Origin: Candidatus Fermentibacterota bacterium
GTDB taxonomy: Bacteria > Fermentibacterota > Fermentibacteria > Fermentibacterales > JCC-6
NCBI GenBank assembly: GCA_963845085.1
Contig: CAWJQI010000005.1
Coordinates: forward strand, 256,001-320,000
Direction of reading: 5' to 3'
Length of the DNA: 64,000 nucleotides
Part shown: positions 6,181 through 15,171 of the stretch, one piece after another
How the letters are laid out: each line of letters opens with the position of its first letter
Numbering within the stretch: the first letter of the stretch is position 1
Notes under the pieces: model-generated
What the model was told of the DNA's origin: nothing
The model's input: only the letters and a program-made list of their open reading frames with translations
Database searches by the model: none
Program-made: the position numbers and the translations under genes

Positions 6181-9100
6181 ATGAGTGATACCATCATGAC
6201 CATCGACGGGAATGAAGCCGCGGCCAGAGTGGCCCACAAACTCAGCGAGGTCATCGCCATCTACCCTATCACCCCCTCGAGCAACATGGGGGAGCATGCC
6301 GATGAATGGTCGGCCGCAGGCAAAACAAACATCTGGAACACCGTCCCGCTGGTGCAGGAGATGCAGAGCGAGGGCGGAGCAGCGGCATCGGTTCACGGAG
6401 CCCTTCAGACCGGCGCCCTCACTACAACCTTCACCGCAAGCCAGGGGCTTCTTCTCATGATCCCCACGATGCACAAGCTCGCAGGGGAACTCACCTCCAC
6501 AGTGTTCCACGTTTCCGCCCGCAGCCTTGCCTGTCAGGCTCTCTCGATCTTCGGTGACCACAGCGACGTCATGTCCGTGCGCAATACCGGCTTCGCGCTG
6601 CTTTCCAGCGCGAGCGTGCAGGAAGTGCCCGACATGGCAGTCATCTCTCACGCGGCCACTCTCAGCAGCCGCATCCCCTTCCTGCACTTCTTCGACGGGT
6701 TCCGCACGAGCCACGAGGTCCAGAAGATCTCCGTGCCTGGCGATGACGTGCTCCGTGCGATGATCGACGACGAACTGGTCCTTGCCCACAGACACAGGGG
6801 AATGAACCCGAACCGACCCGTTCTCAGGGGAACCAGCCAGAACCCCGACGTTTACTTCCAGGGCCGCGAGACCGTCAACACCTATCACCTCGCAACCCCG
6901 GGCATCGTTCAGGAATACATGGACATTTACGCCGGCCTCACCGGCAGGCAGTACCACCTGTTCGACTACGTGGGCGCCCCTGATGCGGAAAGCGTTGTCG
7001 TGCTGATGGGTTCGGGCTGCGAAACTGCACATGAGACGGTCGAGTGCATGCTTGCCGACGGTGCAAAGGTGGGCGTTCTGAAGGTAAGGCTTTACCGTCC
7101 CTTCGACCCGCGCGCCATGCTTGCCGCCATCCCTTCCACCGTGAAGGTTCTCAGCGTTCTCGACCGCACCAAGGAACCCGGAAGCGAGGGTGAGCCCCTC
7201 TACAAAGACGTGGCAACCGCCCTCAAGGAATCCGGCCGCTGCGGCGTGAAGGTGCTCGGCGGCAGGTACGGCCTGTCCAGCAAGGAATTCACGCCCGCGA
7301 TGGTGAAGGCTGTGTTCGACAATGCCGCCGGTGAGAAGAAGCACGGCTTCACCGTCGGGATCAATGACGACCTCACGGGCACGAGCATCACTGTTCCCGA
7401 GTTCTGCATACCCTCCCAGGGCATGCACCAGGCCGTTTTCTTCGGCCTTGGCTCGGACGGAACCGTGGGCGCCAACAAGAACAGCATCAAGATCATCGGT
7501 GAAACCACCGACTTCTACGCCCAGGGGTATTTCGTCTACGACTCCAAGAAGGCCGGCGCCATCACAGTGAGCCATCTCCGCTTCGGTCCCCGCCCGATCC
7601 GCCAGACCTGCCTCATCGGGCGTGCCGACTTCGTGGCATGCCACCAGACCGTGTTCATGGAGAAGTACGACATACTCCGCTACGCTGCCAAGGGGGCAAC
7701 CTTCCTTCTGAACACCCCCTACAGCAGGGATGAGGTCTGGAACAGCCTGCCCCGCGAGGCCCAGAAAGACATCATCGAGAAGAACATCAGGTTCTATGTG
7801 ATCGACGCCTACAAGGTGGCCCGGGAGACAGACATGGGCGTGATGATCAACACCATCATGCAGACCTGCTTCTTTGCGATCAGCGGTGTCATCCCGAGGG
7901 AAGAGGCGATTGCGAAGATCAAGGGCGCCATCAAGAAAACCTACGGCCGCAAGGGCGAGAAGATCGTTGCCAAGAACTACGCTGCGGTGGACCACAGTCT
8001 GGCCAACCTCTTCGAGGTGCAGCACCCCGCAGAGGTCACAAGCTCATTCAACAGACCCCCTTCCGTTCCTGCCGATGCACCTGATTTCGTGCAGAACGTA
8101 ACCGCAGAGATCATCGCCCAGCGGGGCGACAGCCTTCCCGTGAGCGCGATGCCTCCCGACGGCACCTGGCCAACCGGAACGACCCAGTACGAGAAGAGGA
8201 ACATCGCCCTCTCGATACCGGTCTGGGATCCCGCCGTCTGTCTGCAGTGCGGGGTGTGCAGCCTTGTCTGTCCCCACGCCGCCATCCGCATAAAGCACTA
8301 CGACGCGGGCTGCCTGAAGGGTGCCCCCGCCACGTTCAAGAGCATCGATGGCAAGGCCAGGTTCCAGGGCACTTCCTACACGGTCCAGGTTGCCCCCGAG
8401 GACTGCACCGGCTGCGGTGCCTGCGTCGAGGCATGCCCGGGCAGGAACAAGGCCGTCGAGGGCCGGAAGGCCATCAACATGGAGCCCCAGATCCCTCTCA
8501 GGGCTCCCGAGGCTGAGAACTACTCATTCTTCCTTGCCATACCCGACTACGACCGTTCCAAGGTTGACGTCTCCTCCGTGAAGGGCAGCCAGCTTCTCCG
8601 CCCGCTGTTCGAGTACTCCGGAGCATGCGCCGGCTGCGGCGAGACCCCCTATGTGAAGCTCCTCACGCAGCTCTATGGCGACAGGGCCGTGATCGCCAAC
8701 GCCACGGGCTGCAGCAGCATCTACGGCGGGAACCTTCCCACGACCCCCTACTGCAGTAACGCCGACGGGCGAGGCCCCGCCTGGAACAACAGCCTCTTCG
8801 AGGACGCCGCAGAGTTCGGCTTCGGCTTCAGGCTCACCGCCGACAAGCACACCGGATTCGCTGTCGAACTGCTGCAGGCCATGGGTGACAAGCTCGACGC
8901 ATCACTGGTCGCCGGGCTTCTCGACTGTGCCCAGGTCTCCGAGGAGGAGATCGAGGCCCAGAGGAAAAGGGTGGATGCGCTCCGCAAGGCGCTGGGACGA
9001 ATCGACACCCCCGAAGCCCGCCAGCTTGAAAGCCTCGCCGACTACTTCGTGAAACGAAGCGTCTGGATCATTGGCGGGGACGGCTGGGCGTACGACATCG

Positions 9101-9714
9101 GTTACGGCGGTCTCGACCATGTCCTTGCCCAGGGCAAGAACGTCAACGCTCTTGTGCTCGACACCGGCGTTTACTCAAACACCGGCGGGCAGTGCTCGAA
9201 GGCAACCCCGATGGGCGCTGTCGCCAAGTTCGCAGCGAGCGGCAAACCCATGCCCAGGAAAGACCTGGCCATGATAAGCATGACCTACGGCAACATCTAC
9301 GTGGCACAGATCGCCATGGGCGCCAACTACGGCCAGGCAGTGAAGGCGTTCGTCGAGGCCGAAAGTTACGACGGCCCATCGATCATCATCGCCTACAGCC
9401 ACTGCATCGCCCACGGAATCAACATGACCAAGGGCATGGATGAACAGAAGCTTGCCGTGAAAACCGGCCTCTGGCCGCTGTTCCGCTTCGATCCGAGGCT
9501 GATCGGCAAGGGCCAGTCACCACTCCAGCTCGATTCCAAGAAGCCCGACACACCCTTCAGCGAACTCGCCCGCAGCGAGGTGCGCTGGAAGGTTCTTCTC
9601 GACAAGGACCCTGAGCGCGGAGAGATGCTCGTAAAGCAGGCCCAGGTTGAGATCAACAGAAGGTTCCACCTCTACGAGCAGATGGCTGCCATGAATTGGA
9701 ACGCCGGCGAGTAG
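6181..9714 (+). CDS. nifJ: Pyruvate:ferredoxin (flavodoxin) oxidoreductase, single-chain
   Basis: YPITPSS, EMQSEGGA, two CxxCxxCxxxCP ferredoxin motifs, ACAGCGE, GGDGWAYDIG TPP motif. Confidence 0.97.
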   Translation: MSDTIMTIDGNEAAARVAHKLSEVIAIYPITPSSNMGEHADEWSAAGKTNIWNTVPLVQEMQSEGGAAASVHGALQTGALTTTFTASQGLLLMIPTMHKLAGELTSTVFHVSARSLACQALSIFGDHSDVMSVRNTGFALLSSASVQEVPDMAVISHAATLSSRIPFLHFFDGFRTSHEVQKISVPGDDVLRAMIDDELVLAHRHRGMNPNRPVLRGTSQNPDVYFQGRETVNTYHLATPGIVQEYMDIYAGLTGRQYHLFDYVGAPDAESVVVLMGSGCETAHETVECMLADGAKVGVLKVRLYRPFDPRAMLAAIPSTVKVLSVLDRTKEPGSEGEPLYKDVATALKESGRCGVKVLGGRYGLSSKEFTPAMVKAVFDNAAGEKKHGFTVGINDDLTGTSITVPEFCIPSQGMHQAVFFGLGSDGTVGANKNSIKIIGETTDFYAQGYFVYDSKKAGAITVSHLRFGPRPIRQTCLIGRADFVACHQTVFMEKYDILRYAAKGATFLLNTPYSRDEVWNSLPREAQKDIIEKNIRFYVIDAYKVARETDMGVMINTIMQTCFFAISGVIPREEAIAKIKGAIKKTYGRKGEKIVAKNYAAVDHSLANLFEVQHPAEVTSSFNRPPSVPADAPDFVQNVTAEIIAQRGDSLPVSAMPPDGTWPTGTTQYEKRNIALSIPVWDPAVCLQCGVCSLVCPHAAIRIKHYDAGCLKGAPATFKSIDGKARFQGTSYTVQVAPEDCTGCGACVEACPGRNKAVEGRKAINMEPQIPLRAPEAENYSFFLAIPDYDRSKVDVSSVKGSQLLRPLFEYSGACAGCGETPYVKLLTQLYGDRAVIANATGCSSIYGGNLPTTPYCSNADGRGPAWNNSLFEDAAEFGFGFRLTADKHTGFAVELLQAMGDKLDASLVAGLLDCAQVSEEEIEAQRKRVDALRKALGRIDTPEARQLESLADYFVKRSVWIIGGDGWAYDIGYGGLDHVLAQGKNVNALVLDTGVYSNTGGQCSKATPMGAVAKFAASGKPMPRKDLAMISMTYGNIYVAQIAMGANYGQAVKAFVEAESYDGPSIIIAYSHCIAHGINMTKGMDEQKLAVKTGLWPLFRFDPRLIGKGQSPLQLDSKKPDTPFSELARSEVRWKVLLDKDPERGEMLVKQAQVEINRRFHLYEQMAAMNWNAGE

Positions 9715-9734
9715 GGGCTTCATGTTTTTGAAGC

Positions 9735-9756
9735 GGGGGGGGCATCCGCCCCCCCC
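9735..9756. terminator. GC hairpin between convergent genes (possible terminator)
   Basis: GGGGGGGGC-ATCC-GCCCCCCCC; weak U-tract. Confidence 0.45.
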
Positions 9757-9770
9757 TGTAGTTTCCCGGC

Positions 9771-11336
9771 CTACCAGGTTTCCGCCGTTACGGCGAATTC
9801 CCTTTCGCAATCGACAGGACCGGCGTGAACCACATCAGGGCACTCCCTGTCTGAGTGCCTTGTAAGAAGGCTTACAACCACTGTGCCGGCAACGGCCATC
9901 AGCACGCCGAAAGCCAGGTAATTGTAGCCATAGCTGTTCGAAAGCCATCCAGGAAGAGCCTCGGCCCAGGAGTCAGCTATCGTGTAGTACTCCCAGAAGT
10001 AACCGCCTATCGACCCGGCCAGGCCAAGTAGAATCCCGGCGGTAACACCGGCAGCAGTCGCCCGTTTCCAGAAAGCTGCAAGGAACGGAACCGCAATGCA
10101 GGCAGAAAGCACTCCACTTGAAATGTAGTACACGTCTCCCAGCTTCTCGCTTGCCAGCGCCGCAGCCAGGGCTAAAAGGATTGTCGCCATCGAAATGATC
10201 CTTGAAAGGGTGTGCCGCTTGCCTGAAGCGGTGTTCCTGCGTTTCAGAACGGGCTCAACCATGTCGTGCGCAAGAGCCATGGAAGTCACGTTGCTGAAGG
10301 TGTCGATGGTGGACATCTGGCACGCCACAAGTCCGAGGACCATGATGATGGAAAGCCAGCCCGGCAGGCCGGCTATCACGGCACTGATAATCCCCAGTGC
10401 GTCGGGACCCACTTCAGGGGCCGGTGCTCCGTCAACAGGGGGGAATGCCGCAAGGGCGCCAAAGGCGGCAATGGATGGCAGCAGGCAGATAAAGACACCG
10501 ATGAGAAGCACCCCGAGCCATGCTCCCCGTCTGGCCTGCCTCGTGGAGGGTGCAGCCTGAACGCGGATCACCAGGTCCTGCTCCAGAAGCCATCCCGGAA
10601 GGTAGCCGACAAGCAGCACAACGGGGAACAAAACACCCAGAAACCACGGATTGCCGGCATCGCCGGCTGCCGCCCAGGGCGGGGTGACGGTTCGAAGGGC
10701 GCCCACGATATCTCCATTTGTCGCCTGCTGGGCCATTTCCAACACACCGCCCGCAAGAACTATCATGAAGAGAGCCATTATGCCGAACTGAAGCAGGTCG
10801 GTGGTGACGATGGCCCGAAAACCACCGAACCACGTGTAGAAAAGAATCGGCACAACTATCACCAGCATTGCTGCCCAGGCCGGAACTCCCAGAAACGGTG
10901 AAGCAAGGCTTCCCGCCATGAAAAGCTCCGCCTGCGTCCAGGAAAGAAAAACACCGAATGACATCACAGCAGTGAGAACCCTTGCGGCCGGACCGAACCG
11001 CCTCTGAAGGGCCTGGGGAATGCTGATGGTCGGGATGCGCCGGAGCATGGGTACGGCGGCCACGATAATGAACGTTAAAAGAATCCACGGTATCGGAAGG
11101 ATCCAGAGCCCGGACGCTCCATACATATAAATCTGCGACATTCCGAAGCCGATCCACCCCAGCATGAGCCAGCCGGCTGTCAGGCTGACGCCAAGCCGCC
11201 ACCCGGGAATCTTACGGTTGGCAAGCCAGAACTCGAGCTGGCTCTTCTCATCACTGGACTTTGCCCGAAGCTTCCATCCGAGAAGCATCACTGCCAGGCT
11301 GTAAAGAACTACTGCGCCCCAGTAAGCCCACGTCAT
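9771..11336 (-). CDS. Sodium:solute symporter (SSS) family transporter
   Basis: About 13 hydrophobic segments; FWLANR, RRFG, GGFRAIVTTDLLQ, MSTID motifs; abuts upstream barrel gene. Confidence 0.9.
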   Translation of the reverse strand: MTWAYWGAVVLYSLAVMLLGWKLRAKSSDEKSQLEFWLANRKIPGWRLGVSLTAGWLMLGWIGFGMSQIYMYGASGLWILPIPWILLTFIIVAAVPMLRRIPTISIPQALQRRFGPAARVLTAVMSFGVFLSWTQAELFMAGSLASPFLGVPAWAAMLVIVVPILFYTWFGGFRAIVTTDLLQFGIMALFMIVLAGGVLEMAQQATNGDIVGALRTVTPPWAAAGDAGNPWFLGVLFPVVLLVGYLPGWLLEQDLVIRVQAAPSTRQARRGAWLGVLLIGVFICLLPSIAAFGALAAFPPVDGAPAPEVGPDALGIISAVIAGLPGWLSIIMVLGLVACQMSTIDTFSNVTSMALAHDMVEPVLKRRNTASGKRHTLSRIISMATILLALAAALASEKLGDVYYISSGVLSACIAVPFLAAFWKRATAAGVTAGILLGLAGSIGGYFWEYYTIADSWAEALPGWLSNSYGYNYLAFGVLMAVAGTVVVSLLTRHSDRECPDVVHAGPVDCEREFAVTAETW

Positions 11337-12067
11337 TGAAGGAAACCCCAGGTTACTGAAATACCGGCGCGAAAGTGCGAGGGATCTTCAAAAGCATCCT
11401 TGATTTCGCCGTCGAGAAGCGTCGAGAAATCGGCGGACGGGGTGAGGGTTATGACGGACGAAAGCGGGATGGGTGCGGAAATCCCGATTGTGAGGTCGGC
11501 GAGGGCAGCCTTGTTCACGCCGTAAATCGCAAGGTTGTGCCTGCGGTTCCCATAGCCGAGATTTAGGTTAACCGCAGGTTCTACACAACCCACCGGTATT
11601 CCCTGGGCGAGGGAAACGGAACCGTAAAGCCCCTCGGCCTGCTCAAGATCGCGATACAGGTTCAGCGACGGTGACAGGGATACATTGGGACCCATGCAGA
11701 TATAGAGCTCTGATGAGCTTTCGTATCCCGTATTTGGATACCAGTACTTGCCGAGTCCACCGTACACCCACAGCGGGCCCAGATCCCTCGTATAGTCAAG
11801 GATGAAGTCAACTTCCGTGAACTCTCCGGCAGCGAATCCATAACCGTCACCGTAGTCATTCTCCTCGGTCATTTCCATGCTGCCCCACAGAGTGGTGCTG
11901 AACCCGGATAACCCCGCAGAGGCTGAAGGCTCGAGCACCGGAGCGTCAACGTATACCACGCCCCTGAAGAGGTAGCTGCTTCTTGCCGTGAGGTCTGCAG
12001 AACCCCAGAGATCACCGGCTGCTGCAGCTGCGAGCAGCGTCAATACAAAGATCAGACTTGTTCTCAA
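11333..12067 (-). CDS. Outer-membrane beta-barrel protein (TorF/TIGR02001-like putative porin)
   Basis: Signal peptide, S.YLFRG motif, EVDFILDY, amphipathic strands, aromatic C-terminus; TTG start with GGAGG RBS. Confidence 0.75.
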   Translation of the reverse strand: MRTSLIFVLTLLAAAAAGDLWGSADLTARSSYLFRGVVYVDAPVLEPSASAGLSGFSTTLWGSMEMTEENDYGDGYGFAAGEFTEVDFILDYTRDLGPLWVYGGLGKYWYPNTGYESSSELYICMGPNVSLSPSLNLYRDLEQAEGLYGSVSLAQGIPVGCVEPAVNLNLGYGNRRHNLAIYGVNKAALADLTIGISAPIPLSSVITLTPSADFSTLLDGEIKDAFEDPSHFRAGISVTWGFLQ

Positions 12068-12070
12068 GGA

Positions 12071-12128
12071 AACCCTCCCCCGGTATTCCGGCCGGGAAGG
12101 TTATGCGAATACAGCCCCCCGGACCGGA
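12071..12128 (-). promoter_or_regulatory. Alternative mRNA pairings controlling the barrel-gene RBS (anti-anti-SD / anti-SD / SD)
   Basis: A UCCGGUCCGGGGGG (12128-12115) pairs with B CCUUCCCGGCCGGA (12100-12087); B alternatively pairs with SD segment CCGGGGGAGGGUU (12083-12071). Confidence 0.65.
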
Positions 12129-12193
12129 GTTGTCGATCGGCTGCCCAACCCGGACAGCAATTCAATTCCTCATGTACGACGGACTGCGGTCAT
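12101..12193 (-). CDS. Putative selenocysteine-containing leader peptide MTAVRRT(U)GIELLSGLGSRSTTPVRGAVFA, 30 aa
   Basis: RBS AAGGAAAGGA before ATG 12193; in-frame TGA at 12172-12170; frame stays open to TAA 12103-12101; SECIS-like hairpin 11 nt after the TGA. Confidence 0.65.
12140..12158 (-). promoter_or_regulatory. Bacterial SECIS-like hairpin (leader peptide)
   Basis: GCUGUCC-GGGUU-GGGCAGC, 7-bp stem, G-first apical loop, 11 nt 3' of UGA. Confidence 0.65.
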
Positions 12194-12220
12194 CTTGTCC
12201 TTTCCTTGAAGGTTGGTCGG

Positions 12221-12249
12221 ATTCTTTTCACGAAACACATCGATGTCAA
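12221..12249 (-). promoter_or_regulatory. Sigma70-type promoter for leader/barrel/SSS operon
   Basis: TTGACA (12249-12244), 17 nt, AAGAAT (12226-12221). Confidence 0.6.
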
Positions 12250-12283
12250 GCGGCACCCGGCACTGTCGTAGCTCACTGCGGGT

Positions 12284-12313
12284 ACCGGCCGGGCGCAGGT
12301 TCCCCCGGCCGGT
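12284..12313. terminator. GC hairpin downstream of protease gene, upstream of leader promoter
   Basis: ACCGGCCGGG-N10-CCCGGCCGGT. Confidence 0.45.
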
Positions 12314-12333
12314 CCGCGAAATGCCCGCAACTG

Positions 12334-13423
12334 TCAGAAGGCAGCCTTTTTAGCCTCGTCGGAGAGCTCGCACCCGTACTTTTCCACCAGATACCTGTCA
12401 AGGTCATCGGCCCTGGATGCCATGTTCACGATGTTTTCCCGTAATGCTGTCGACATGGTCCGATTTCAGGTCAGAGAGGTGCACCCTGTACGAGATGTAG
12501 ACAAGCCCGCTGTCGACACCCAGGTTGTAGGGCAGCGCAGGATTGCTGAGGATATACCTGTAGAGCTCGGTGAGGTTTTCGGTCGGCAGTTTCACAAGGG
12601 GACATGTGACAGTCAGGTAGTTCGACCTGTATACGAAGATCCTGATGAGAGCGCTTCCCCGGTGAAACTCCCAGAACTCGTAGCCGTTCCGCGCCAGAAC
12701 GGGGTCAATCCCCATCTTCTCGACGGCGCTCTCGACAAACACGGAAAGATCGGTCATGGGAGCTCTTTCAAAGAGGCTCTTCACATCGAGCCTGACCCCG
12801 CAGTTCTCGCAGTACTCATCCTCCTGCTCGAGGAGGCAGCCGCACGACGGGCATCTCACCGAGTAGTGTTCGGGCATCTTCTTCTCGAGAAGTGCCAGCT
12901 CCCTCCCTATGATATCCGCCGGGAGCGAAAAACCTATGTTCTCGGCTTCCTTGAACTTGCACGTTGTTATGCCGACCACCCGGCCGTCGGGAAGCACCAT
13001 CGGGCCACCGCTGTTGCCGGGATTGATCGCGGCGTCGGTCTGGATGTAGCACTGTCCGTTCACGAGCTGGTTGACGCTCGAAATGATGCCCTCGGTCACG
13101 TTGAACGGATAGCCGAAGGGGTAGCCGAGCACAAGTATCCTGTCCATCACCTTCAGGTTGTCGACGCTCGAAAAGTCAAGTTCAGGGGCATCGATCACAC
13201 CCGCGGGTCTGAGAAACGCGAGATCGTGCTTCGGGGAGATCAGTATCACATCCGCCCTCATGGCTTCACTGCCGGTGTTCTCGACCGAGACCTCCCTCTC
13301 TCCGTCGACAACGTGGTGGTTCGTGATGATCACACCGTGCTTCTTCGAATAGAAGCCCGACCCGCTTCCGCGCGAGGTTCTTACCTTGAAGACCAGTTTG
13401 AAGATGTCATTGAGATCTGCCAT
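12334..13423 (-). CDS. Trypsin-like serine protease + zinc ribbon + YbjN-like domain; +1 frameshift near 12443
   Basis: GSGSGF, TNHHV, DLA, INPGNSGGP; CPSC...CENC; after the shift the frame continues RENIVNMASRADDLDRYLVEKYG...AAF to stop at 12336-12334. Confidence 0.8.
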
Positions 13424-13426
13424 GAT

Positions 13427-14548
13427 CTACTCCGATGGCTGTTGGAGTTTCATAACTTCCGACACCGCCTTGAAAAGCTCTTCAGCGGCCGTCTTCCAAT
13501 CTTTTCCCGACGCCGCGTGCAATCCATGGTTGAGGGTTTCTTCTATGCTCCTCGGAACCAGGAACCTGTAGAGGAGATTGTAGACATCGTAGAGAAGGAA
13601 CACCACCGCGCTCATGAACGCCGAGGAGGAGATGTCCTTCTCTGCATTGAGATAGTAGTTCTCAAGCTCCTTCTTTATCAGGGGCAGGAAGGCGTGCTTC
13701 CTGAGGGAAATCAGGCTTTCAGTCCTGTAGATGGATTCCGAGAACTTTTCAGGAGTGATGGCTGCGAGGTCGCTGAAAAAGCCGCAGAGATTGTCGAGCT
13801 TCTCAGCGGGGGCCGCCTTGGAAAATGAATCGTTCACGACCTTTCCGATCTCGGCGGCCAGAAATCCCTTCGGCGAAAAGATGTAGTCGATCTTCCAGAG
13901 GGATATCAGGCCGGACTCAACGCCCATGTCGTACCACCGGTTGTCCCTGAAGTAATGAAGGTAATCGAGACCTTCCTTCACATGCGCTCCAAACCTTGCG
14001 TAAATGTCGGCCAGTTCGGCGTCGGTGCAGTGAATGCACTTCGGTTCGCAGATCCTTTTTGCCTGGAACTTCTCGATGAACACGTCGTCGAAATGATCGG
14101 CGTTGATGCACAGCTCGTACAGGATGTCGTACAGTTTGTAGGGCTCGCACAGCGAAAGCGGCACATCGATCTCGAAATGAAGCTGGTCCTCCCTCAGCAC
14201 GATCTGTGTCAGGAAGAGGACGCCGAAGTTGATCTCCGACACCTGTCTGAGCAGGGCGTTCACCCTTTTCTCCGGCAGGCTCAGGAATGGTGCACGAATC
14301 TGAAGGGCCGAATCGGTGATCCTCATGTTGATAATGATTGAGCCGTGGGGCAGGTTGAACTCGTTCCCGTCTGCACTGCCGTACTTCGCGGCGGCTTCCG
14401 GATCCAGGTAGTCAAGCAGGTTCAGGATGGTTTCCCTGTGTTTTCCGGCGCTGTGCGAATCAAGCACCGCCTGCCATCTGTTGGTGAAATCCGTGAGCCC
14501 TGTCAGGCCTCCCGTAGGCGTTTCGAAAATGTACGAAGTGTTCATCAT
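13427..14548 (-). CDS. Hypothetical protein with YbjN/type-III-chaperone-like N-terminal domain
   Basis: HGSIII...APFL.LP...LLRQVSEINF...ADHFDD pattern; co-oriented 3 bp from protease. Confidence 0.6.
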   Translation of the reverse strand: MMNTSYIFETPTGGLTGLTDFTNRWQAVLDSHSAGKHRETILNLLDYLDPEAAAKYGSADGNEFNLPHGSIIINMRITDSALQIRAPFLSLPEKRVNALLRQVSEINFGVLFLTQIVLREDQLHFEIDVPLSLCEPYKLYDILYELCINADHFDDVFIEKFQAKRICEPKCIHCTDAELADIYARFGAHVKEGLDYLHYFRDNRWYDMGVESGLISLWKIDYIFSPKGFLAAEIGKVVNDSFSKAAPAEKLDNLCGFFSDLAAITPEKFSESIYRTESLISLRKHAFLPLIKKELENYYLNAEKDISSSAFMSAVVFLLYDVYNLLYRFLVPRSIEETLNHGLHAASGKDWKTAAEELFKAVSEVMKLQQPSE

Positions 14549-14748
14549 GCCTCCGTTACGAGTTAGGCTTCCGGCGCCCGGAGCGGCTCATTCACCCCCT
14601 GCACGCCTCGAATTTCCTTTCAGGAAGGCGACAATAGCGCAGGTTTTAATACCAGTCAATCGCACGGCACGGTCATGCCGGAATGTGTTGACCGGAGTCC
14701 GGTTCCTTCCATATCATCCCTGCGGGATACCCTTTCATCGGAGGATGA

Positions 14749-15171
14749 ATGACAACCATTGAATTCATCATAATGTGCGTGCTGATGGCAATGGTCCCCG
14801 CTTGCGGGGAAGACGGCGACGACGGAACAGGGGAGGCTTCTGATGCGTCATCCGCGGAGGTGGCATTCTCCGGAGTAGAGGAGTTGACCCGCCTTCACGG
14901 GAAGCGGGAGTCCGAAGTCGTATCTGAAATGGGTCCGCCGGATTTTGAGCAGGAACTGGTCCTGCATGCCGGAGAGACCCTTCCCGAGTTCTTTATCGAG
15001 GTTCACAACACCTATTCACCGGAAGATCCCGCCATTGAAGGAAGGGTGATAAGACACCTTCAGTGGGACAGGGATGGTTACAGCGAAGCCGTATTCATGC
15101 ACAGACCCGACCCTGACGGCGAGTGGATCGTACTCGAGTCTGTGAAGTGGTCGGAAGGGGTGGAGTTCTGA
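14749..15171 (+). CDS. Hypothetical lipoprotein
   Basis: GGAGG RBS; VPAC lipobox; acidic linker. Confidence 0.6.
   Translation: MTTIEFIIMCVLMAMVPACGEDGDDGTGEASDASSAEVAFSGVEELTRLHGKRESEVVSEMGPPDFEQELVLHAGETLPEFFIEVHNTYSPEDPAIEGRVIRHLQWDRDGYSEAVFMHRPDPDGEWIVLESVKWSEGVEF

Follow-up and report, generated by a model that had tools for sequence, protein, structure and literature searches.

A candidate selenocysteine-keyed leader, with a UGA-ended upstream reading frame and a SECIS-like hairpin, before a porin–symporter operon in Fermentibacterota

Known systems closest to the leader

Ribosome-mediated leaders that switch between alternative RNA helices are known from the trp, his and pheA attenuators and from the erm and cat translational attenuators. 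In bacterial selenoprotein genes the UGA codon precedes a selenocysteine insertion sequence (SECIS) hairpin, which in E. coli fdhF is spaced 11 nt from the UGA, and an early G in the apical loop is a criterion for such hairpins in the bSECISearch model. Here we describe a leader that shares features with both, located in a 64,000-nucleotide stretch of DNA from a Candidatus Fermentibacterota bacterium (GenBank assembly GCA_963845085.1, contig CAWJQI010000005.1, positions 256,001 to 320,000; hereafter the window). The leader, a compact element of ~130 nt on the minus strand, precedes the genes for a small porin and a sodium:solute symporter family (SSF) transporter, and carries a short upstream open reading frame (uORF) that ends at UGA, a SECIS-like hairpin behind it, and alternative helices that involve the porin Shine–Dalgarno (SD) sequence. 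A switch that is read by the ribosome and keyed to the decoding of selenocysteine (Sec) is the best explanation of this arrangement and, in our judgement, a reasonably probable one.

Like the leader-peptide and translational attenuators, the leader has a short ORF with its own SD (in 19 of 19 distinct leaders), and the position of the leading ribosome would select among mutually exclusive helices, which end in SD sequestration in the window and in a terminator-like hairpin in a sister family. Unlike in the classical attenuators, sensing would rely on one UGA codon, with a requirement for SelB, Sec-tRNA and a SECIS hairpin; the decision would lie between termination and recoding instead of stalling at hungry sense codons, and the target is a transporter and not a biosynthetic operon. 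Compared with the SECIS elements of selenoprotein genes (the fdhF type and the selD of the same genome), the hairpin likewise lies 10–15 nt past an in-frame UGA, its G-rich apical loop has an early G, the frame continues beyond it, and the host has selA, selB, selC and selD; however, it sits in a uORF of only a few codons with an unconserved product, amid alternative helices. By analogy, the leader is functionally closest to ribosome-mediated attenuation, while its putative sensing part is structurally a SECIS behind a UGA.

Two further systems link Sec decoding to expression. In the 5′ untranslated region of E. coli selAB, according to the accessible part of the report, a SECIS-like element lies 3 nt from the SD, and SelB blocks this adjacent SD (bioRxiv 10.64898/2026.03.03.709296). 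The present leader would similarly use a SECIS mimic to feed Sec status back on expression, but it has a uORF and a UGA, neither of which belongs to the selAB leader as described in that part of the report. The Sec-type fdh of Treponema primitia is under selenium control through translational uncoupling, and the available sections of that study (PMC3892789) describe a comparable situation in which failed decoding of the Sec UGA lowers downstream expression, although in that case the UGA belongs to the coding sequence of the enzyme and no dedicated leader is described. A search of the full-text literature, the coverage of which leaves out subscription journals, yielded no paper on a bacterial leader peptide or uORF with a Sec codon.

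The leader in the window and in its relatives

The features of the leader are given in Table 1. Promoter, SD, uORF, TGA, 11-nt spacer, hairpin and closing TAA all lie at the minus-strand positions given in an earlier note on this DNA, which had proposed a selenocysteine-sensing switch from the letters alone. The promoter is the sole promoter-like site found by a promoter scan of 1.4 kb (11500–12900; shuffles average 0.4), and the leaders of relatives have, by inspection, a TTGAC(A/C/T) box and a –10-like box separated by 17 nt at the equivalent relative position. Other leaders have a purine-rich SD located 5–10 nt ahead of the uORF start. The predicted read-through product is MTAVRRT-U-GIELLSGLGSRSTTPVRGAVFA, and the frame is also 30 codons long in both same-genus relatives. 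Segments A and B are complementary at 13 of 14 positions by inspection, and B pairs with the porin SD via 7 consensus pairs (columns 120–126 with 135–141). Both pairings had been proposed in the earlier note and are borne out here; they form mutually exclusive helices in the window and in the same-genus relatives.

Table 1. Positions of the leader elements and of the two genes downstream, in window coordinates
Feature	Position	Strand	Evidence or remark
Sigma-70-type promoter, TTGACA (12249–12244), 17 nt, AAGAAT (12226–12221)	12221..12249	–	promoter scan, 10/12 matches
uORF SD, AAGGAAAGGA	12198..12207	–	
uORF, MTAVRRT-stop/Sec; ATG 12193–12191, 6 more sense codons, TGA 12172–12170	12170..12193	–	
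11-nt spacer, UGA to hairpin	12159..12169	–	
SECIS-like hairpin, GCUGUCC-GGGUU-GGGCAGC; 7 bp, loop GGGUU	12140..12158	–	present in all three modelled states
Read-through frame, 30 codons including UGA; closes at TAA 12103–12101	12101..12193	–	
Segment A (SD mimic, anti-anti-SD)	12115..12128	–	partner in free fold is 5′ half of uORF, alternatively B
Segment B (anti-SD), immediately 3′ of UAA	12087..12100	–	
Porin-gene SD region	12074..12083	–	paired with B in minimum-energy fold
Porin, 244 amino acids; signal peptide, outer-membrane beta-barrel (small porin type); TTG start 12067	11333..12067	–	predicted structure
SSF transporter, 521 amino acids; start overlaps porin stop	9771..11336	–	PF00474, E 2e-31

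As a single instance the leader is not beyond chance, because a loose pattern (SD, start, 4–11 codons, TGA, hairpin 9–15 nt on, early loop G) has 195 matches in the 2.45-Mb genome and the fold z-score of the window leader alone is only –2.49. The 195 matches would favor the view that a short ORF and a GC-rich hairpin stand together by chance. This explanation is extremely improbable, as it is already contradicted by the comparative data, i.e., conservation over two deep lineages with covariation. The leader is more than chance because the architecture is kept upstream of the orthologous operon in the relatives that have it. Within this genome no second copy of the leader is found by blastn, and the loose pattern lacks the specificity to reveal any. 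In contigs of four sequencing runs, parts of the leader DNA are covered with 95–99% likeness, and positions 12068–12200 are unchanged (at low depth). The sequencing runs in which this DNA was located include no RNA run.

For the comparison, the upstream DNA was read for every locus with a porin homologue in the genomes of the phylum (70 genomes, which represent one order), in a species-representative collection, and in metagenome contigs. Porin homologues occur in 14 of the 70 phylum genomes, at 29 loci of the species-representative collection and at 40 in metagenome contigs. The 19 distinct leaders come from 11 of the 70 Fermentibacterota genomes, from four genomes of another lineage, and from metagenome variants. 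Their uORFs start with ATG (14 leaders), GTG (three) or TTG (two), have 4–9 sense codons, and encode peptides that are dissimilar between groups (MTAVRRT, MYFVYKN, MRLLFIKA, MSRWL, MQKL and others), and the UGA lies 95–173 nt from the gene. The first stop of the uORF is TGA in 19 of 19 leaders, and the hairpin begins 10–14 nt past it in every one, despite the varying uORF length and UGA-to-gene distance. In the window family, 98% of the alignment cells of the hairpin are paired, three of seven pairs have double changes, and none of 500 shuffles reaches the score; the corresponding values for the sister family are 100%, two of eight pairs, and one of 500 shuffles. A single global MAFFT alignment over 17 leaders put the groups out of register, and no model was built from it. 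In sum, the uORF, UGA, hairpin spacing and alternative helices of the A/B/SD type described in the earlier note from a single locus are kept in the orthologous leaders, with covariation in the hairpin. By these comparisons the leader is real and deeply conserved, and its invariant features are those that Sec decoding would require.

The spacing of the hairpin bears on whether it could serve as a SelB operator of the E. coli selAB type, in which SelB and Sec-tRNA would bind the hairpin and refold the leader while the uORF would be incidental. A SECIS-like hairpin in a 5′ leader has the precedent noted above. In E. coli, however, the element adjoins the SD that it regulates (in the accessible part of that bioRxiv report), whereas here the hairpin ends at 12140, ~55 nt upstream of the porin SD (12083–12074), and the UGA is invariant. 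In addition, the hairpin always stands at its fixed distance past the in-frame UGA of a well-initiated uORF with turnover among ATG, GTG and TTG, which points to a translating ribosome. We consider a SelB operator quite improbable.

In one leader (L018:300–560, G062), the sequence GGAACC has two alternative partners, GGUUCC immediately 3′ of the UGA and a more distant GUUCC. The hairpin at the 11-nt position would therefore form only with the first arm covered, e.g., by a ribosome at the UGA.

The leader accompanies the porin and symporter pair and no other gene. In a script count covering 85 porin loci, some of them redundant, the leader is flagged at 31 of the 34 loci where the porin is followed by the symporter; two of the remaining three end at a contig edge within the leader, and the sole leaderless pair is from Myxococcota, on a contig where a gene for a sigma-54 activator lies upstream. 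Where no symporter is detectable after the porin, the leader is flagged at 3 of 51 loci, comprising two contigs cut right after the porin and one weak AT-rich false match; leaderless porin paralogues are located behind a purC-like gene. In the second lineage, which was found via two leader-bearing contigs outside the phylum, the module is present at four of four porin and symporter loci and at none of ten porin loci without symporter. A covariance model of the window-type leader gives five strong matches over the 70 phylum genomes (E below 1e-9), all at porin loci, in five genomes, and reveals no regulon beyond porin loci in this set. Sixteen weaker matches were inspected and rejected as gene starts or sites within ORFs (including a 31.9-bit match in a 465-residue ORF), with one exception. 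This is an ORF of 44 codons (L156:1381–1547, G037 contig C30), which encodes a small hydrophobic protein, ends with TGA and has a 7-bp hairpin 11 nt on, as in leader L060; it may encode a small selenoprotein or belong to a different leader.

Reading of the UGA

The genome encodes SelA, SelB and tRNA-Sec, as well as a SelD that reads ...ACAG-U-AGK... across an in-frame TGA (G000 contig C5, ~740.5–741.7 kb; L099:129–1268) and has a 59-residue Cys-rich N-terminal extension, so that the Sec machinery on which the earlier note's proposal would depend is in place. Of 10 further genomes with the leader that were tested, 9 also encode a SelD with an in-frame TGA. The SECIS of this SelD has a 6-bp stem, begins 15 nt past the UGA, and has the loop AGGUU, which in sequence resembles the leader loop GGGUU. 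By reading, 18 of the 19 leader loops have a G in the first two positions (GGGUU, UGGUG, GGGGU, AGUUG, CGGGC/U, AGACU and others). From these features we infer that the leader UGA would be read as Sec, with SelB binding the hairpin.

Elsewhere in the genome, a candidate secreted selenoprotein with a signal peptide and the motif C-A-N-U (C-x-x-U) belongs to no Pfam family (L096:1–759, G000 contig C4:762314–763075); its TGA is followed, after exactly 11 nt, by an 8-bp hairpin whose loop is AGGU. A wider selenoprotein search by joining frames split at TGA went from 8820 to 976 to 46 candidates, and none of the three tested in Pfam has a domain across the TGA. The molybdopterin formate dehydrogenase of this genome has no TGA.

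All 19 leaders keep the frame open beyond the UGA. In one genus the spacer has a 1-nt indel that shifts the read-through frame, and the shifted frame still ends in a conserved UGAnGUAG box, which provides stops in two frames. We find this box more telling than open-frame statistics. All four leaders from the second lineage have their stop immediately past the SD-mimic segment, 25–27 codons after the UGA. The open frame, together with the equal length of 30 codons within the window's genus, might suggest a gene for a small selenopeptide of 18–32 residues with a function of its own. However, read-through peptides are not conserved, which disfavors a functional selenopeptide: they are dissimilar between groups and frame-shifted within one genus, and the surrounding RNA forms SD-sequestering or terminator-like helices. 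A selenopeptide gene is therefore very improbable.

Several observations weigh against Sec decoding at the leader UGA. TGA makes up 69% of the stops of long frames genome-wide, and because of this the invariance of the UGA is weak evidence in the GC-rich lineages alone. An open frame past the UGA is expected by chance with P 0.20–0.74 per leader (shuffles); multiplication across ten lineage representatives gives ~1e-4, but these are not independent as the calculation supposes. SelB occurs in 64 of the 70 phylum genomes and in 46 of the 46 good ones, so the co-occurrence of the leader with Sec use is non-discriminating. On an AUG-UGA-SECIS mini-mRNA in vitro, release factor 2 (RF2) outcompeted or abolished Sec insertion, and the recoding efficiency is only 30–40% even with ample selenium, according to the available part of that study (PMC4513850). 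By analogy, competition by RF2 may limit recoding on the shortest (4-codon) uORFs. Finally, the modelled polarity of the switch is opposite in different lineages (see below).

Some of these points would favor an ordinary uORF or leader-peptide switch, in which the UGA is a mere stop, the hairpin is structural (a pause site or the top of a 1:2 helix), and another signal is sensed, such as translation capacity, RF2 activity or an RNA ligand. Besides the high share of TGA among the genomic stops, the open frame that is not significant singly, and the read-through models that disagree between lineages, we note that in several leaders the UGA falls within predicted helices and could be held constant by these as well. 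However, the second stop of the identical frames is TAA in three leaders, TAG in nine and TGA in only seven, and four of the leaders have a G+C content of 47–52%; the contrast between 19 of 19 first stops and 7 of 19 second stops, these four leaders included, argues for a constraint on the UGA itself. The uORF peptides share no codon or residue that would name another sensed amino acid, the position of the hairpin is set by the UGA and not by the start codon, and the two-frame stop box is retained after the frame shift. In addition, the leader matches no Rfam family: a scan of 9000–15000 with Rfam 15 at E up to 10 gives five chance-level matches, none within the leader. An ordinary uORF switch is thus unlikely, though it deserves to be taken seriously.

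Proposed switching and the transporter pair

For the switch keyed to Sec decoding, we propose the following sequence of events. Transcription would begin ~25 nt ahead of the well-initiated 7-codon uORF, and the ribosome would arrive at the UGA with the SECIS-type hairpin 11 nt downstream, at the entrance to its mRNA channel. When SelB-GTP-Sec-tRNA(Sec) is available, a fraction of the ribosomes would insert Sec, pass the hairpin and segment A, and reach the UAA that abuts segment B; without it, RF2 would terminate translation at the UGA. The coverage by the ribosome would then decide the partner of B, which is either A, leaving the porin SD free, or the SD, blocking translation of the porin and symporter. 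In one sister family, the module of uORF, UGA and hairpin would be coupled to an intrinsic-terminator-like hairpin instead.

To model the outcome, each leader was folded free, with a ribosome placed on the UGA, and with one placed on the second stop, and the probability that the SD is unpaired was calculated for each of these three states at static equilibrium. In the window, the values are 0.01 (free), 0.06 (UGA) and 0.29 (UAA): the B:SD helix survives a ribosome at the UGA, while the UAA abuts B. The same-genus relatives are mixed, with 0.20/0.48/0.39 and 0.30/0.30/0.57. Modelled read-through opens the SD in this window and in leader L005. In the neighboring genus and in L030 of the second lineage, the geometry is that of a classical attenuator: A is paired with the uORF, a ribosome sitting at the UGA allows A:B to form and the SD opens (e.g., from 0.00 to 0.51), and in the model a read-through ribosome halts on A so that B:SD remains. 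In the sister family, a GGCCCGG-N4-CCGGGCC hairpin with a U-rich tract behind it has its 5′ arm in the segment past the read-through UAG, and it was flagged as terminator-like in one of the two leaders scanned. The read-through stop of this family lies 3 nt ahead of the 5′ arm, and a read-through ribosome would block the hairpin.

The earlier note had proposed that uptake is on under selenium limitation, with the reservation that a ribosome terminating at the UAA also covers part of B. The proposal fits other lineages, whereas folding of the window gives the opposite (SD closed when free and at the UGA, partly open at the UAA). Expression when Sec is short is favored because the conserved A:B anti-sequestor helix would have no purpose if the SD were opened by read-through alone, because the classical geometry occurs in four lineages, and because no YedE-type carrier (PF04143) is found in this genome, which is 88% complete. 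Expression when Sec is available is favored by the terminator geometry of the sister family, by the stop that abuts the anti-SD in the window's genus and in L018, and by the partial recoding efficiency reported in the accessible part of PMC4513850, which suits an output proportional to read-through. Overall we lean slightly, at little better than even, to expression when Sec is short.

The 244-residue porin belongs to no Pfam family, and its match to the putative porins of the TorF family (TIGR02001) is below the cut-off (15.7 bits against 47.15, E 0.008). AlphaFold2 predicts a signal helix and an all-beta barrel, described as of the 12-strand type, with a predicted local distance difference test (pLDDT) score of 89.5, and the best Foldseek matches of the barrel are the small monomeric outer-membrane channels PcoB, OmpG, Tsx, KdgM and NanC. 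The 521-residue symporter reaches no curated NCBIfam equivalog; its solved relatives include vSGLT, SGLT1, CHT1 and NIS. One porin orthologue of the sister family (L012, G040 contig C212) has an in-frame TGA at about codon 53, which could mark a pseudogene, a sequencing error or a Sec codon. Distant porin homologues of Planctomycetota, Sumerlaeota, Aegiribacteria and other contigs (L032–L046, L074–L088) have TGGCAC-N5-TTGC promoters of the sigma-54 type; many lie behind a gene whose end encodes a Fis-type helix-turn-helix, one follows a P-II gene, and none is followed by a symporter gene.

Upstream of the leader on the minus strand are genes for a trypsin-like peptidase with a weak zinc-ribbon match and a protein with a weak match of the YbjN/type III secretion system-chaperone type (12404–13423 and 13427–14548), and a GC-rich inverted repeat lies between the stop of the peptidase gene and the leader promoter. 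A 128-codon ORF antisense to the leader (12058–12444, plus strand) most likely results from the high G+C content.

YedE is present in 39 of the 70 phylum genomes, and its loci have no uORF–UGA–hairpin arrangement in the 30 that were pattern-scanned, nor by eye upstream of 10, where the upstream genes abut. The regulatory outcome of the leader and the role of its operon in selenium supply are both putative. It is possible, and we put it forward tentatively, that the ribosome serves as a selenium sensor through a single Sec codon and its SECIS, and thereby sets a dedicated two-membrane uptake of selenium, comprising a small porin and a Na+ symporter, in bacteria without a YedE-type carrier.

The regulation of bacterial selenium metabolism is poorly understood. 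If the leader is read as proposed, it would be the first attenuator that responds to the 21st amino acid and to the recoding of a stop codon. It would also flag genes of selenium homeostasis, and would here point to an uncharacterised pair of a porin and an SSF symporter in Fermentibacterota.
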